Below, piece by piece: positions 21,073 to 30,090 of a DNA stretch of 30,090 bases (position 1 is the stretch's first letter; each line of letters begins with the position of its first letter). Location: the NCBI GenBank assembly GCA_036444135.1, contig JAZFZX010000252.1, positions 1 to 30,090 on the forward strand. The letters are read 5' to 3'. The position numbers were made by a program, and so were the translations under genes. Under the pieces are notes generated by a model. The model was not told the origin of the DNA, did no database searches, and worked only from the letters and a program-made list of their open reading frames with translations. Source of the stretch: Kiloniellales bacterium (lineage in GTDB: Bacteria > Pseudomonadota > Alphaproteobacteria > Kiloniellales > JAKSDN01).

Positions 21073-25804
<4,732 letters not shown>

Positions 25805-25811
25805 GGCAGCC

Positions 25812-27863
25812 CTACGGTTCGACCGGTCGGGTCGCCTGGGCGAGCCAGGCCGCCGTCTCCTGGTCGAGCAGCGGCGTCAGCTCGTCGCACACGCGGGCGT
25901 GGTAGGCGTCGAGCCAGGCCCGCTCTTCGGCGGTCAGCAGCGAGACCTCGACGAGCGACTGGTCGCTGGGTGCCAGCGTCAGGGTCTCGAAGCCCAGCAT
26001 GTCCTGCTCCTCGCCCTCGGCCTTCGCGTCCTCGGTCACGGCGACCAGGTTTTCGATCCGGATGCCATAGGCGCCGACCTTGTAGTAGCCCGGTTCGTTG
26101 GACACGATCATGCCCGGATCGAGGGCGATGCGGTTGGCGATCTTGGAAATGCGCTGCGGCCCCTCGTGGACCCCCAGATAGCTGCCGACGCCGTGGCCGG
26201 TGCCGTGATCGTAATCGAGCCCCGCCTGCCACAAGGCCAGTCGGGCCAGGCTGTCGATCTGGCTGCCGGTGGTGCCGCGCGGGAAACGGGCGCGGGCCAG
26301 CGCGATGTGGCCCTTGAGCACCCGCGTGAAGCGGTCGCGCATCTCAGGCGTCGGATCGCCGATGGCCAGCGTTCGCGTCACGTCGGTCGTCCCGTCCAGA
26401 TATTGCCCTCCGGAATCGACCAGATAGAGCTCGCCCTTGGCCAAGTACCGGTTGCTTTCTTCGGTCACCCGGTAATGCATGCTGGCGCCGTTCGGCCCCG
26501 ACCCCGAGATGGTGTTGAACGACAGATCGCGCAGCTCCGCCGACTCGGCCCGAAAGGCCGTCAGCCGCTCGGCGGCGTCGATCTCGCTGATGCCGACATT
26601 GTCCCCGACATCGGCGGTCGCGGCCGCGAGCCACGCCAGGAACCGGGTGAGCGCAACCCCGTCGCGCCGATGCGCGTTGCGGGCGCCGTCCAGCTCGACC
26701 GCGTTCTTCCTGGCCTTGGGAAGCAGGCAGGGATCGTCGCCCTTGACGATCTTGGCCTCCGCCGCCTTCAACCGGTCGAACACCCAGGCCGCGCCGGTCG
26801 CCGGATCGGCTTGCACCGCCTTGCCCGCCGCCACCAAGGTGTCCAGCGCCGCGCCCAGCTCGGCAGGCGCATGGATGCTCACCTCCTCGCCCAGGTGGTC
26901 CTGCAGGCCGGGCACCAGCTTGCGGCTGTCGATGAACCAGTCCACATGGCCGTCGGCGTGAACCACCGCGAACGACAGCGCCAAGGGTACGTGGCTCACG
27001 TCGCCGCCGCGCACGTTGAGCAGCCAGGCGATGGAATCCGGCAGCGTGAGCACGGCCGCATCGGCGCCGTTCGAGGCCAGGGTCTTGCAAATTTCCCGGC
27101 GTTTGTCCGCCGAATCCCGACCCGCGTAGGTCGCGGCGTGGGCGACAACGGGGGCAATCGGCGGCGCGGGCTGGTCGGCCCAGACGGCATCCACGGGGTT
27201 GGTTTCGCAGGCGGCCAGACCGCCGCCGGCCTTCTCTGCCGCGGCGCTCAGGCGCGCCACCTGGCCATGCGTGTGCAGCCAGGGGTCGTAGCCCAGCTTT
27301 GCCTCGGGCGGCAGATGGGCCTCGATCCAGCCCTCGGGCGGCTGTTCGATCAGGTGCTGCGGCGCATAAAGCGTGGTGTCGACCTGCGCCCGGGCCTGCA
27401 AGGTGTAGCGCCCATCGACGAAGATCGCCGCCCGATCCGCCAGCACCACGGCGACACCGGCCGATCCGTTGAAGCCGGTGAGCCATCCCAGACGCCCCGC
27501 CTGCAGGGCGACATATTCTCCTTGGTGCGCGTCGGCGCGCGGCACCAGAAATCCGCCCAGTCCCTGGCGGGCCAATTCGCCGCGCAACGCCGCGAGCCGG
27601 GCAGCCGCGTCCAACGGTTCACCAGCCGCGGCGGCCTGGGCGGCCTTCAATTCGGTCTTGAGGGCCTGCAACTGGTCCTCGAGCGCCGAGGGCAACGCGT
27701 CGCCGATGAGCGCCATCCACGCCCGCGGATCGAAACCCTCGGGCGCCGCCAAGACCCCCGTCAAGAGATCGCGGATGCCAGCGGCGTCGTACGCGCTGCC
27801 CGCCTCGGACAGCAGGCCGTCGAGCGCCTGGTCACCGGCATAGCTTATCGAGTCTCGTGTCAT
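25812..27863 (-). CDS. Aminopeptidase P family (M24B, Xaa-Pro aminopeptidase) with an N-terminal extension of about 83 aa
   Basis: Creatinase-N start LVPRADAHQGEY and metal-ligand motifs DSGGQYLDGTTDVTRT, HGTGHGVG, VHEGP, SNEPGYY, GIRIEN. ATG at 27863 lies downstream of a good promoter. Confidence 0.93.
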   Translation of the reverse strand: MTRDSISYAGDQALDGLLSEAGSAYDAAGIRDLLTGVLAAPEGFDPRAWMALIGDALPSALEDQLQALKTELKAAQAAAAGEPLDAAARLAALRGELARQGLGGFLVPRADAHQGEYVALQAGRLGWLTGFNGSAGVAVVLADRAAIFVDGRYTLQARAQVDTTLYAPQHLIEQPPEGWIEAHLPPEAKLGYDPWLHTHGQVARLSAAAEKAGGGLAACETNPVDAVWADQPAPPIAPVVAHAATYAGRDSADKRREICKTLASNGADAAVLTLPDSIAWLLNVRGGDVSHVPLALSFAVVHADGHVDWFIDSRKLVPGLQDHLGEEVSIHAPAELGAALDTLVAAGKAVQADPATGAAWVFDRLKAAEAKIVKGDDPCLLPKARKNAVELDGARNAHRRDGVALTRFLAWLAAATADVGDNVGISEIDAAERLTAFRAESAELRDLSFNTISGSGPNGASMHYRVTEESNRYLAKGELYLVDSGGQYLDGTTDVTRTLAIGDPTPEMRDRFTRVLKGHIALARARFPRGTTGSQIDSLARLALWQAGLDYDHGTGHGVGSYLGVHEGPQRISKIANRIALDPGMIVSNEPGYYKVGAYGIRIENLVAVTEDAKAEGEEQDMLGFETLTLAPSDQSLVEVSLLTAEERAWLDAYHARVCDELTPLLDQETAAWLAQATRPVEP

Positions 27864-27898
27864 AGGACCGCCCAGATGCGCCGGATAGGGTGCCTGGC

Positions 27899-27927
27899 AA
27901 GCTATGTCCCCCACCCCCGGCTGACAA
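27899..27927 (-). promoter_or_regulatory. Putative sigma70 promoter for the aminopeptidase P gene
   Basis: Minus strand TTGTCA (27927-22), 17-bp spacer, TAGCTT (27904-27899), 35 nt upstream of the ATG at 27863. Confidence 0.65.
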
Positions 27928-28137
27928 GACCCGGTGTTTGGAATCCGGGTGCAGGAAGCGGGCCAAGAGCTATGCCGGCGGCGCAATGCTGCAGTGCAAT
28001 ATCTCCGCTCCCGTTGCCGGCTCCGGCGGCTCATCTTCGCAGTAACGACGGGTGATGCAGACGTGTTCACGCTGCGCACCGCCAGTGTTTGTTAACCCAG
28101 CGATGAAGTTCGCACGATCGACTAAGGAGTTCGACTC

Positions 28138-28860
28138 ATGTCTCGTTTGACCGAGAGAGAGATTTTGGAGATTCGCCGGGTCAAGGGCGCCGTTCACCAA
28201 GGGGCGCGAGATGAGGTTTCTCAGGTTTGTCTCGCCGACGGGACGCCGTCCCGGCAATCAACGCCGCTTGCCGATTTCGCAACCATCGTGGCCCGCCACA
28301 GCGGCCTGGCCGATATTGGTTGGGTCCTTCGGCACAAGATCGCCGCTCCCATCCTGCATGCCATTCGCGTGCGGCAGGCCATCAGGGCACTGGAGCCGAT
28401 GAGCGATATCCTGTTGCGGGACATCGGCATCGACCGGAACCGGATAGAAGAGACCGTCAGGGGCATGGTTGCCGATTCAACGCCCGCGATGCGCCCGGCG
28501 GTTGGCCCTTTCGCGGCCCTGCGGCGCTGGCAGAGCCAGCGGCACACGATCAACGAGCTGAGCCGCCTGAACGACCGTGTCCTCAAAGACATCGGAATCC
28601 TTCGGAGCGAAATTCCGAACCTCGCCGCACGGATGCACAGGACCGGGACGGACGGCCGCATGGCGGGACTTGGTTCCGATCATGTGATGGCCCGCACCAC
28701 GTCTGCGATGCACGGCATCCAGCAGTGGAACCTGAGCCGGCAGGCAGCCAACGATATGGCCCGCATCGATCAGGAAGCCCTGGCCGACCTGGGTTATGTG
28801 AAGGGCGACGTCGACAGGGTCCCCGAGGGGCTTTCGGAGCGTAAGCTCGCCGCCGGCTGA
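28138..28860 (+). CDS. Protein with three tandem DUF1127 (YjiS-like) units
   Basis: TAAGGAG RBS. Three copies of the L..L.D..L.DIG pattern: ALEPMSDILLRDIGIDR, ELSRLNDRVLKDIGILRSEI, DMARIDQEALADLGYVKGDV. Confidence 0.85.
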   Translation: MSRLTEREILEIRRVKGAVHQGARDEVSQVCLADGTPSRQSTPLADFATIVARHSGLADIGWVLRHKIAAPILHAIRVRQAIRALEPMSDILLRDIGIDRNRIEETVRGMVADSTPAMRPAVGPFAALRRWQSQRHTINELSRLNDRVLKDIGILRSEIPNLAARMHRTGTDGRMAGLGSDHVMARTTSAMHGIQQWNLSRQAANDMARIDQEALADLGYVKGDVDRVPEGLSERKLAAG

Positions 28861-28953: not shown

Positions 28954-29832
28954 CTAACCGGCCAGGACCAGGGTGACCCACTCGCCCAGTGCAATTCGCC
29001 GATTGCGCCTGAGGCCCGCGGCCCGGTAGCGGGCGATGACCGCGGGTTCCTGATCCCGCAGCAAGCCGGACAGAATGACGATGCCCCGCGGCGCCAGGTT
29101 GCGGCGCAGATCGCCGGCCATGCGGATGAGTGGCCCGGCCAGGATGTTGGCGGCGATCAGGTCATAGGGTCCGCGCTGGGCCACGGCCGCGTGACGGAAC
29201 CCGTCCGCCTGAATGGCACGCACCCGGCGTGCGACCGCGTTCAGGCGGGCGTTCGCAATCGTCACCTGCACGGCCACCGGATCCACGTCACAGGCCATCA
29301 CCGCGGCCGGCCACAGCTTGGCCATGGCGATGGCCAGAACCCCGGCACCGCAGCCGAGGTCGAGCGGCCGATGCGGCCGCGCCCGGCGCGCCAGCCCGTC
29401 GAGCGCCAACAGGCAGCCCCGGGTCGATTCGTGGTGGCCGGTGCCGAAGGCCTGTCCGGCGTCGATGCGGATCGCGATCGTCCCCGCCGGCGGCGGGTCC
29501 GCCAGGGGCGCACCGAACAGGTAGAAACGCCCGGCGCGCACCGGCGGCCGGGCCTTCCGGCTCTCCACCGCCCAGTCGAGCGGCGGCAGGCATTCCAGCA
29601 CGACCTCGGGCACCGCCGTCCCGGTGGCGGCCGCGGCAGCGGCCAGCAGGGCATTCAGCTCCGCCGGGTCCGGCTGGGTGGCGAAATAGGCCTCGAGGGG
29701 CACGGGACGGGGCGTATCGGGTGGGCCGGTGACGGTCGCCCCGCCGAGGCGCTGCAGCGCCGCCTCGATCAGACCGAGTGCCGCCCCGGGCACCGAAAGC
29801 AGGAGTCGGACTCCGCCGGATTCGGCAGACAC
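28954..29832 (-). CDS. prmA: 50S ribosomal protein L11 methyltransferase
   Basis: AFGTGHHEST, SAM motif LDLGCGAGVLAIA, DVDPVAV, YDLIAANILAGPL, ILSGLL. GTG start. Confidence 0.9.
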   Translation of the reverse strand: MSAESGGVRLLLSVPGAALGLIEAALQRLGGATVTGPPDTPRPVPLEAYFATQPDPAELNALLAAAAAATGTAVPEVVLECLPPLDWAVESRKARPPVRAGRFYLFGAPLADPPPAGTIAIRIDAGQAFGTGHHESTRGCLLALDGLARRARPHRPLDLGCGAGVLAIAMAKLWPAAVMACDVDPVAVQVTIANARLNAVARRVRAIQADGFRHAAVAQRGPYDLIAANILAGPLIRMAGDLRRNLAPRGIVILSGLLRDQEPAVIARYRAAGLRRNRRIALGEWVTLVLAG

Positions 29833-29836
29833 CCGC

Positions 29837-30090
29837 CTAACCCGCCTGATCCTCCGGGACCACGAAGCCGGCCATCACCTTCTTCTGACCCGCCTTGTCG
29901 AAGCCGATGGTCAGGCGTTCGCCATCTACCTTCTGCACGGTCCCGTAGCCGAACTTGTGGTGGAACACCCGGTCCCCCGCCGCGCGGCCCTGCCCGGCCA
30001 AGGGCTCGACCACCGTGGGCACCACGTCGATGAAGCGTTCGCCGCGGCCGGAGCGCGCCCGCGCCCGCACCATGCCCGGCGACCAGTGGG
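29837..30090 (-). CDS. uvrD: C-terminal fragment of a UvrD/PcrA helicase (continues beyond the window)
   Basis: Tudor-like tail GDRVFHHKFGYGTVQKVDGERLTIGFDKAGQKKV, typical of alphaproteobacterial UvrD. The frame is open to the window edge. Confidence 0.75.
   Translation of the reverse strand, partial: HWSPGMVRARARSGRGERFIDVVPTVVEPLAGQGRAAGDRVFHHKFGYGTVQKVDGERLTIGFDKAGQKKVMAGFVVPEDQAG

Follow-up and report, generated by a model that had tools for sequence, protein, structure and literature searches.

Organisation of the aminopeptidase P gene and its product

The minus strand of contig JAZFZX010000252.1 (Kiloniellales bacterium, Alphaproteobacteria; assembly GCA_036444135.1), analysed here as a window of 30,090 nucleotides, contains a complete gene for an aminopeptidase P (APP) family protein of 683 residues, with start codon ATG at 27863 and stop codon at 25812-25814. 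Aminopeptidases P cleave the N-terminal residue off peptides with proline at position 2. This study deals with the N-terminal extension of the protein, a four-helix module that is very likely related to the first helices of the UPF0149 (YgfB/YecA) domain. A previous sequence-only reading of the locus had placed a UPF0149-like domain at 27615-27863, which corresponds exactly to residues 1-83, and had considered it a possible fusion to the peptidase. In the same cluster, proteins sharing at least 90% identity bear the annotation 'aminopeptidase P family protein [Kiloniellales bacterium]'; their length in NCBI and JGI gene calls is likewise 683 residues.

Four Pfam domains were identified in the protein (Creatinase_N, Creatinase_N_2, Peptidase_M24 and Peptidase_M24_C; Table 1), all of them with scores exceeding the respective cut-offs, and the NCBIfam equivalog model for E. 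coli PepP (NF008131) scored 39.9 bits against a cut-off of 465. A full-length AlphaFold2 model obtained with 35 homologues showed a mean predicted local distance difference test (pLDDT) value of 92.2 and a predicted template modelling (pTM) score of 0.91. The best matches of this model in the PDB were human XPNPEP1 (3CTZ; E 2.2e-58, 37% identity), C. elegans APP-1 (4S2R) and P. falciparum APP (5JQK), and superposition on 4S2R gave template modelling (TM) scores of 0.82 and 0.91 by query and target length, respectively, corresponding to an APP1 fold. Residues D483, D494, H557, E590 and E604 were invariant in a 35-sequence alignment and, judged by their spacing (11/63/33/14, close to that of human XPNPEP1), are the putative five metal ligands. 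Taken together, the four domains, the low PepP score, the XPNPEP1-like fold and the invariant residues indicate that the gene product is, in its predicted activity, a cytosolic metal-dependent Xaa-Pro aminopeptidase of the M24B family and of the three-domain APP1 type. The claim that the enzyme belongs to the longer type and is not a PepP orthologue was therefore correct.

In comparison with the solved APP1 enzymes (3CTZ, 4S2R and 5JQK), the Kiloniellales protein shows the same four Pfam domains and D/D/H/E/E positions, 36-37% identity, and TM scores of 0.79-0.82 when normalised by query length and of 0.87-0.91 when normalised by target length. These enzymes have around 610-630 residues, shorter than the 683 residues found here, and the lower TM score by query length is consistent with a module located outside the matched region. 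The module is also missing from roughly half of the relatives at order level. E. coli PepP, a two-domain enzyme (AMP_N and Peptidase_M24), resembles the Kiloniellales protein in its M24B catalytic family, in its expected Xaa-Pro specificity and in having a UPF0149 partner, in this case by gene adjacency. On the contrary, the two enzymes are non-orthologous and differ in domain architecture, UPF0149 is encoded by a separate gene in E. coli and is fused here, and neither ubiH nor ubiI, present in the E. coli pepP operon, adjoins the aminopeptidase P gene within this window.

Conservation and translation of the N-terminal extension

The Creatinase_N domain begins only at residue 89, leaving about 80 extra residues at the N-terminus. 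When orthologues from 41 related genomes were compared, their alignments started either at residue 2-17 or at residue 66-89. The extension was present in 19 genomes, including the source genome (families f1, f2, f3, f4 and f9), and absent from 18 (f5-f8 plus one f1 genome), with four genomes being fragmentary or undetermined in this respect; the tally includes the unpublished genome G021, whose locus L016 entered none of the alignments. In orthologues without the extension, the protein begins 5-25 residues ahead of a helix with the sequence R-L-x-x-L-R, and no similar sequence was found upstream. These data confirm the presence of the approximately 83 additional residues described by the sequence-only reading. 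Its statement that alphaproteobacterial enzymes normally begin after them is too strong, since the extension occurs in about 22% of the alphaproteobacterial genomes sampled (see below).

Alignment of 23 extensions revealed three invariant residues, L11, G29 and W42 in the numbering of the first row (L18, G36 and W49 in the 683-residue protein), along with a nearly invariant motif, A-G-V-L-A-A-P ... A-W-M-x-L-V. The ratio of nonsynonymous to synonymous substitution rates (dN/dS) across the extension ranged from 0.22 to 0.54 in nine pairs, and the extension is under purifying selection. A search of 1.84 billion protein representatives with a hidden Markov model (HMM) of the extension retrieved 299 clusters (50% identity) at E<=1e-3 and 145 at E<=1e-10. 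A word-based homologue search with residues 1-95 yielded only five proteins, a limit of sensitivity evidenced by this exhaustive HMM search. Among the best 150 representatives, 78 run on into recognisable APP sequence, 40 stop at the end of the extension or just beyond it, and 32 show other tails, mostly with a frameshifted or chimeric appearance. The positions at which the alignments start, the conserved residues and the dN/dS values indicate that the extension is, on this comparative evidence, a conserved and translated protein segment and not a chance open frame.

The exact start of translation is a separate matter. An in-frame GTG is located at 27917, 18 codons upstream of ATG 27863, and the Shine-Dalgarno sequence ahead of the ATG is weak; ATG 27863 is thus regarded as a candidate start. 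Since the conserved region begins at residue 8, the extension would be translated from either codon. The sequence-only reading had based translation on a clean sigma70 promoter just upstream of the ATG. No sigma70-like promoter was detected in a consensus scan of positions 27400-28300, and the best candidate recognised by eye matched 8 of 12 positions (Table 1); translation of the extension is upheld by its conservation. A single terminator-like hairpin was found in the same scan, inside the coding sequence and within chance expectation.

Sequence similarity of the extension to UPF0149

UPF0149 (PF03695) was the sole Pfam family found recurrently on the extension. In the 683-residue protein it scored 20.6-21.2 bits (E 3.5e-4 to 5.5e-4; Table 1), and the PF03695 HMM picked the APP N-terminus in eight related genomes. 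Matches were obtained at E<0.1 in 18 of 23 relatives and at E<=0.01 in 36 of the 150 world-wide representatives, with a best E value of 4.5e-8, so that some homologous extensions pass Pfam significance, unlike the 683-residue protein itself. Profile-profile comparison by hhalign of the extension with 34 genuine UPF0149 proteins drawn from across the phylum resulted in a probability of 94.3% (E 1e-7) over 66 columns, aligning positions 7-72 with 1-72. The probability was 93% when 150 extension sequences were used, 85.7% against the YgfB-type subset alone and 50.9% against the YecA-type subset alone. Control profiles (two reversed and 30 column-shuffled) scored at most 13.8, in comparison with 44.5 for the real alignment. 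In the reciprocal search, carried out in ten genomes holding UPF0149 genes, the only hits of the extension profile at E<0.1 other than APP were two UPF0149 genes, both weak (E 0.008 and 0.017).

The likeness of the extension to the N-terminal helices of UPF0149 proteins, first noticed as a residue pattern, was therefore recovered by profile methods. The module shares with YgfB (1IZM, 4GYT) and with the N-terminal domain of YecA/AscA the order of helices and the signature L-x-G-[VLI]-x3-[P/G]-x(6-7)-W, and the N-terminal register agrees by Pfam, hhalign and two structure aligners. It differs in extent, as it comprises about 70 of the 181 profile positions and four of the seven helices, and it carries neither the SEC-C metal-binding tail of YecA nor YgfB's C-terminal tail. 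A language-model search for look-alikes of residues 1-85 gave no usable match. Searches of PDB sequences matched designed repeat proteins and an L-x-A-A-P...W motif of a nitroreductase-like entry (E 0.031), which were judged to be chance matches.

Predicted structure of the module

In the full-length model, block-mean pLDDT values were 90-97 for residues 11-80, 87 for residues 81-90 and 98 for residues 91-100. The module modelled alone also folded confidently (mean pLDDT 88, pTM 0.74), with values of 51-65 in the linker region. This difference in linker confidence between both contexts suggests that module and linker may occupy a fixed, docked position on the enzyme.

A UPF0149 profile search of the PDB retrieved only two entries, YgfB of H. 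influenzae (HI0817, 1IZM) and lpg0076 of L. pneumophila (4GYT). The lone module had 1IZM as top Foldseek match (probability 0.85, TM 0.66, root-mean-square deviation 2.2 A, 70 columns). In an exhaustive VIA-align search of 48,161 chains, 1IZM was again first, with a Z score of 6.9 and a root-mean-square deviation of 2.1 A over 75 residues (model 1-75 vs chain 2-80), followed by a match with Z 5.4; 4GYT was ranked sixth (Z 4.7, model 1-74 vs chain 10-87). The predicted fold of the module thus superposes on both of these solved UPF0149 members. In the ESM Atlas, the extension-bearing APP clusters were followed by a cluster of 89 residues (TM 0.69), 73% of whose members carry Pfam UPF0149.

Two further structural matches were recorded. 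A cluster of 252-residue Myxococcota proteins in the ESM Atlas matched the module with TM 0.72 over 67 residues, and may be another carrier of the helical unit. In addition, the module model (27621-27842) showed weak VIA-align matches to bacterial sigma-A region 2 (ranks 4, 16 and 48; Z 4.0-4.9), a likeness that may be a coincidence among helical folds.

Distribution, gain and loss of the module

In an even sample of Alphaproteobacteria, the module was found in 90 of 401 genomes (about 22%) and in 69 of 308 genera. Nearly all copies in this class sample lie in open frames of about 670-720 residues, and the shorter frames are mostly located near contig ends. No free-standing copies were recognised in the 401 genomes or in the 150 best representatives, and the few representatives with tails other than APP looked like products of frameshifts or chimeric assembly. 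These data show that the module occurs essentially only as an N-terminal fusion to aminopeptidase P. The fused module and free UPF0149 genes did not complement each other in their occurrence: free copies were present in G002 and G028, which have the fusion, and also in G038, which lacks it.

A few metagenomic proteins (P0014, P0021, P0077, P0111 and P0125) combine the module with unrelated tails (Dus, TPR and others); these proteins are probably chimeric assemblies, a genuine second architecture being less likely. A separate search with residues 1-130, dominated by the conserved start of APP, revealed the extension in 5 of 80 loci, corresponding to alphaproteobacterial metagenome-assembled genomes, Dongia, Elsteraceae and one contig labelled Bradymonadia. 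This last contig (JBKAGE010000036.1, 451 kb, labelled as a metagenome-assembled genome of Bradymonadia, Myxococcota, and thus outside Alphaproteobacteria) encodes a module-bearing APP at L075:3001-3321 (profile E 1.8e-13, frame of 673 residues), which would be due either to horizontal transfer or to an error in binning or labelling.

A quick maximum-likelihood tree of the catalytic body required at least 2-3 changes to account for the presence and absence of the extension. Family f8 and genome G006, neither of which has the extension, were nested among extension-bearing clades, a placement that fits an old fusion, early in Alphaproteobacteria, followed by repeated loss. G006 (locus L012, contig C181) belongs to f1, the family of the source genome, and in its APP about 15 residues precede the R-L-x-x-L-R helix; the lack of the module in G006 points to a recent loss.

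Adjacency of ygfB and pepP

The genes ygfB, pepP, ubiH and ubiI of E. coli K-12 are annotated in this order on one strand, with 25 bp separating ygfB from pepP, and the operon has been described (PMC7641849, PMC7038268). In an even sample of the phylum, 20 of 24 YgfB-type loci had a pepP homologue (42-85% identity to E. coli PepP) directly downstream, as opposed to none of ten YecA-type loci, which bears out the gene order given by the sequence-only reading. In P. aeruginosa, one transposon screen with a beta-lactam had both ygfB and pepP among its hits, the two genes showing opposite signs (PMC7038268).

No conserved YgfB-PepP fusions were found in Gammaproteobacteria, where the search yielded only five singleton open reading frames. 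In these frames (P0173-P0177, 340-642 residues), PepP domains are joined to a YgfB of enterobacterial type, 76-90% identical to the query, and each of the five was observed once, on one contig.

The components of a possible Rosetta-stone relationship are separate and adjacent in the 20 YgfB loci and fused in the 90 alphaproteobacterial genomes, with the qualification that the fused piece is a half-domain and that the enzyme is of the other M24B type. On this genomic evidence, the UPF0149 family is associated with both types of Xaa-Pro aminopeptidase, which are not orthologues of each other: Gammaproteobacteria show the association in the order of their genes, and Alphaproteobacteria show it in the fusion. 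An association of this kind between UPF0149 and Xaa-Pro peptidases had been proposed from the Kiloniellales sequence.

Genomic context

The aminopeptidase P gene stands alone in the window, convergent with a gene for a pyridoxal phosphate (PLP)-dependent enzyme and divergent from a DUF1127 gene (Table 1).

Table 1. Features of the aminopeptidase P locus (positions in the window; residues in the 683-residue protein)
Feature	Position	Strand	Evidence or remarks
Complete coding sequence, aminopeptidase P family protein (P0001), 683 residues plus stop	25812..27863	-	Open reading frame list, translation
N-terminal four-helix module, residues 11-79 (helices 11-20, 27-39, 48-52, 59-79)	27627..27833	-	AlphaFold2 models and conservation in 23 relatives
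UPF0149 (PF03695)-matching stretch, residues 13-78 vs profile positions 2-70 of 181	27630..27827	-	Pfam, hhalign, structure matches to 1IZM
Linker from module to first helix of domain I, residues 80-88	27600..27626	-	Model secondary structure; composition variable in alignments
Creatinase_N, domain I, residues 89-211	27231..27599	-	Pfam E 3e-15, 57.3 bits vs cut-off 22
Creatinase_N_2, domain II, residues 230-390	26694..27176	-	Pfam E 3.2e-39
Peptidase_M24, catalytic pita-bread domain, residues 394-611	26031..26684	-	Pfam E 2.5e-53
Peptidase_M24_C, residues 622-681	25821..26000	-	Pfam E 2.3e-23
Weak promoter-like element, TTGTCA (27927-27922), 17-nt spacer, TAGCTT (27904-27899)	27899..27927	-	8/12 matches, by eye
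PLP-dependent (PALP) enzyme gene, convergent	24824-25804	+	Stop codons about 7 nt from aminopeptidase P stop
DUF1127 protein, 240 residues, divergent neighbour	28138-28860	+	A single above-threshold Pfam stretch (65.8 bits) at residues 125-159
PrmA (ribosomal protein L11 methyltransferase)	28954-29832	-	E 1e-53
UvrD/PcrA-like gene, C-terminal tudor end; precedes PrmA	29837-30090	-	Runs off the window

Possible role of the module in the enzyme

All functions published for UPF0149 domains consist in binding. In YecA, the domain is reported to bind (hold) unfolded proteins (bioRxiv 10.1101/2020.07.21.215244), and YgfB binds the antiterminator AlpA (PMC9998450). The YgfB homologue MtvS1 interacts with RNA polymerase through a predicted contact with the beta' coiled-coil, on which it is predicted to dock much like sigma region 2.2, and the same role has been proposed for YgfB (PMC13627669). 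By analogy with these proteins, we tentatively propose that the module serves the enzyme as its own YgfB-like docking surface, by which a partner protein or unfolded peptide substrates would be recruited to the peptidase. The module would then act in cis in the way that YgfB may act on PepP in trans.

Several observations weigh against this proposal and against a tie to PepP. The partners reported for YgfB are transcription proteins, not peptidases, and the half-domain may be devoid of the binding pocket. Moreover, PepP and the fused enzyme are not orthologues, and the five YgfB-PepP open reading frames of Enterobacterales are probably artefacts, produced by frameshifts or by assembly across the gap of 25 bp.

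A purely intramolecular role of a UPF0149-homologous module is about equally likely. The module might pack on domain I or II and thereby lend stability to the enzyme, change its oligomeric state or control access to the active site; it would then dock neither partner nor substrate and would have no functional tie to YgfB-PepP. Such a role is in line with the confident placement of the module in the full-length model and with the linker values, which suggest an ordered, docked arrangement, as well as with the restriction of the module to half of the UPF0149 fold. The module has, in addition, been lost at least twice (f8, G006) without loss of the enzyme, so it is dispensable. On the other hand, an intramolecular role leaves unexplained the order of UPF0149 and PepP genes in the 20 of 24 gammaproteobacterial loci, and the module is predicted to fold confidently alone.

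Probable homology of the module to UPF0149

Both roles considered above take the module to be homologous to UPF0149, and some of the results speak against this kinship. The PF03695 score of 20.6 bits lies below the gathering cut-off of 25, so that the protein falls outside the family by the Pfam criterion, and the similarity covers only positions 2-70 of the profile and residues 2-80 of 1IZM, not the whole seven-helix domain of about 180 residues. Neither 1IZM nor any other UPF0149 entry was retrieved by the extension profile from PDB sequences. The Foldseek E value for 1IZM was 0.92, and the VIA-align Z score of 6.9 is below the level (8) at which a match between helical folds is convincing alone, so that the superposition is not decisive in itself. 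Furthermore, the residues shared with UPF0149 (Gly, Pro/Gly, Trp and hydrophobics) are core-like and uninformative about a shared binding site.

These results leave room for the explanation that the extension is a lineage-specific helical appendage, its likeness to UPF0149 being due to generic helical periodicity and a chance G...P...W motif. The sub-threshold single-sequence scores of the 683-residue protein, the unrelated entries at the top of the PDB profile search and the structural Z scores below 8 would be expected in that case. We consider it improbable, as Pfam, hhalign with its controls, Foldseek and VIA-align constitute four independent lines that lead to the same family, N-terminus to N-terminus, and the only two UPF0149 entries retrieved from the PDB were both within the top 6 of 48,161 chains. 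Besides, some members of the extension family exceed Pfam significance, and no other family recurs. An annotation artefact, with the real start near residue 80-85 (for instance at TTG codon 83) and the upstream frame kept open by high G+C, would agree with the lack of a strong Shine-Dalgarno sequence and of a consensus promoter and with the long spurious open frames of high-GC genomes, and is highly improbable in view of the amino-acid conservation over 90 genomes, the dN/dS values, the confidently predicted fold and the lack of similar upstream sequence in extension-less orthologues.

Pfam, hhalign, the reciprocal search, the PDB structure matches and the ESM Atlas agree in the same register; each of these five lines is weak to moderate alone, and together they make common ancestry of the extension and UPF0149 very likely. 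Because the module has four of the seven helices, a Pfam score below the cut-off and shared residues that are core-like, the extension is a UPF0149-derived sub-domain and not a UPF0149 domain. Altogether, we assign a probability of about 0.8 to the joint conclusion that the protein is a three-domain APP1 enzyme with an additional four-helix module and that this module is homologous to helices 1-4 of UPF0149. The observation of that earlier reading is thus confirmed and its interpretation supported with the above caveats; the adaptor function is putative.

Significance of the fusion for UPF0149 and aminopeptidase P

UPF0149 proteins are widespread and still poorly understood. The roles published for YgfB in transcription and beta-lactam resistance, and for YecA as a chaperone, leave the location of ygfB before pepP unexplained in the papers cited here. 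The fusion, in which a YgfB-like module is joined to the other type of Xaa-Pro aminopeptidase and which is conserved across the class, provides genomic evidence of a separate kind for a direct link between the two, and it makes the ygfB-pepP puzzle testable.

A more far-reaching idea, which we regard as unlikely but worth stating, is that the N-terminal half of UPF0149 is a dedicated partner module of Xaa-Pro aminopeptidases. In Gammaproteobacteria, YgfB would physically bind PepP and so couple its reported regulatory partners, such as AlpA or RNA polymerase, to N-terminal X-Pro trimming; in about a fifth of Alphaproteobacteria, fusion of the module to an aminopeptidase P that is no orthologue of PepP would have made the same interaction permanent. 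If true, this would explain for the first time in biochemical terms why ygfB and pepP are paired almost universally. Whatever the role of the module, the architecture described here joins two known families in an undescribed and widespread combination, and it defines the unannotated N-terminal domain of hundreds of alphaproteobacterial proteins annotated as 'aminopeptidase P family'.

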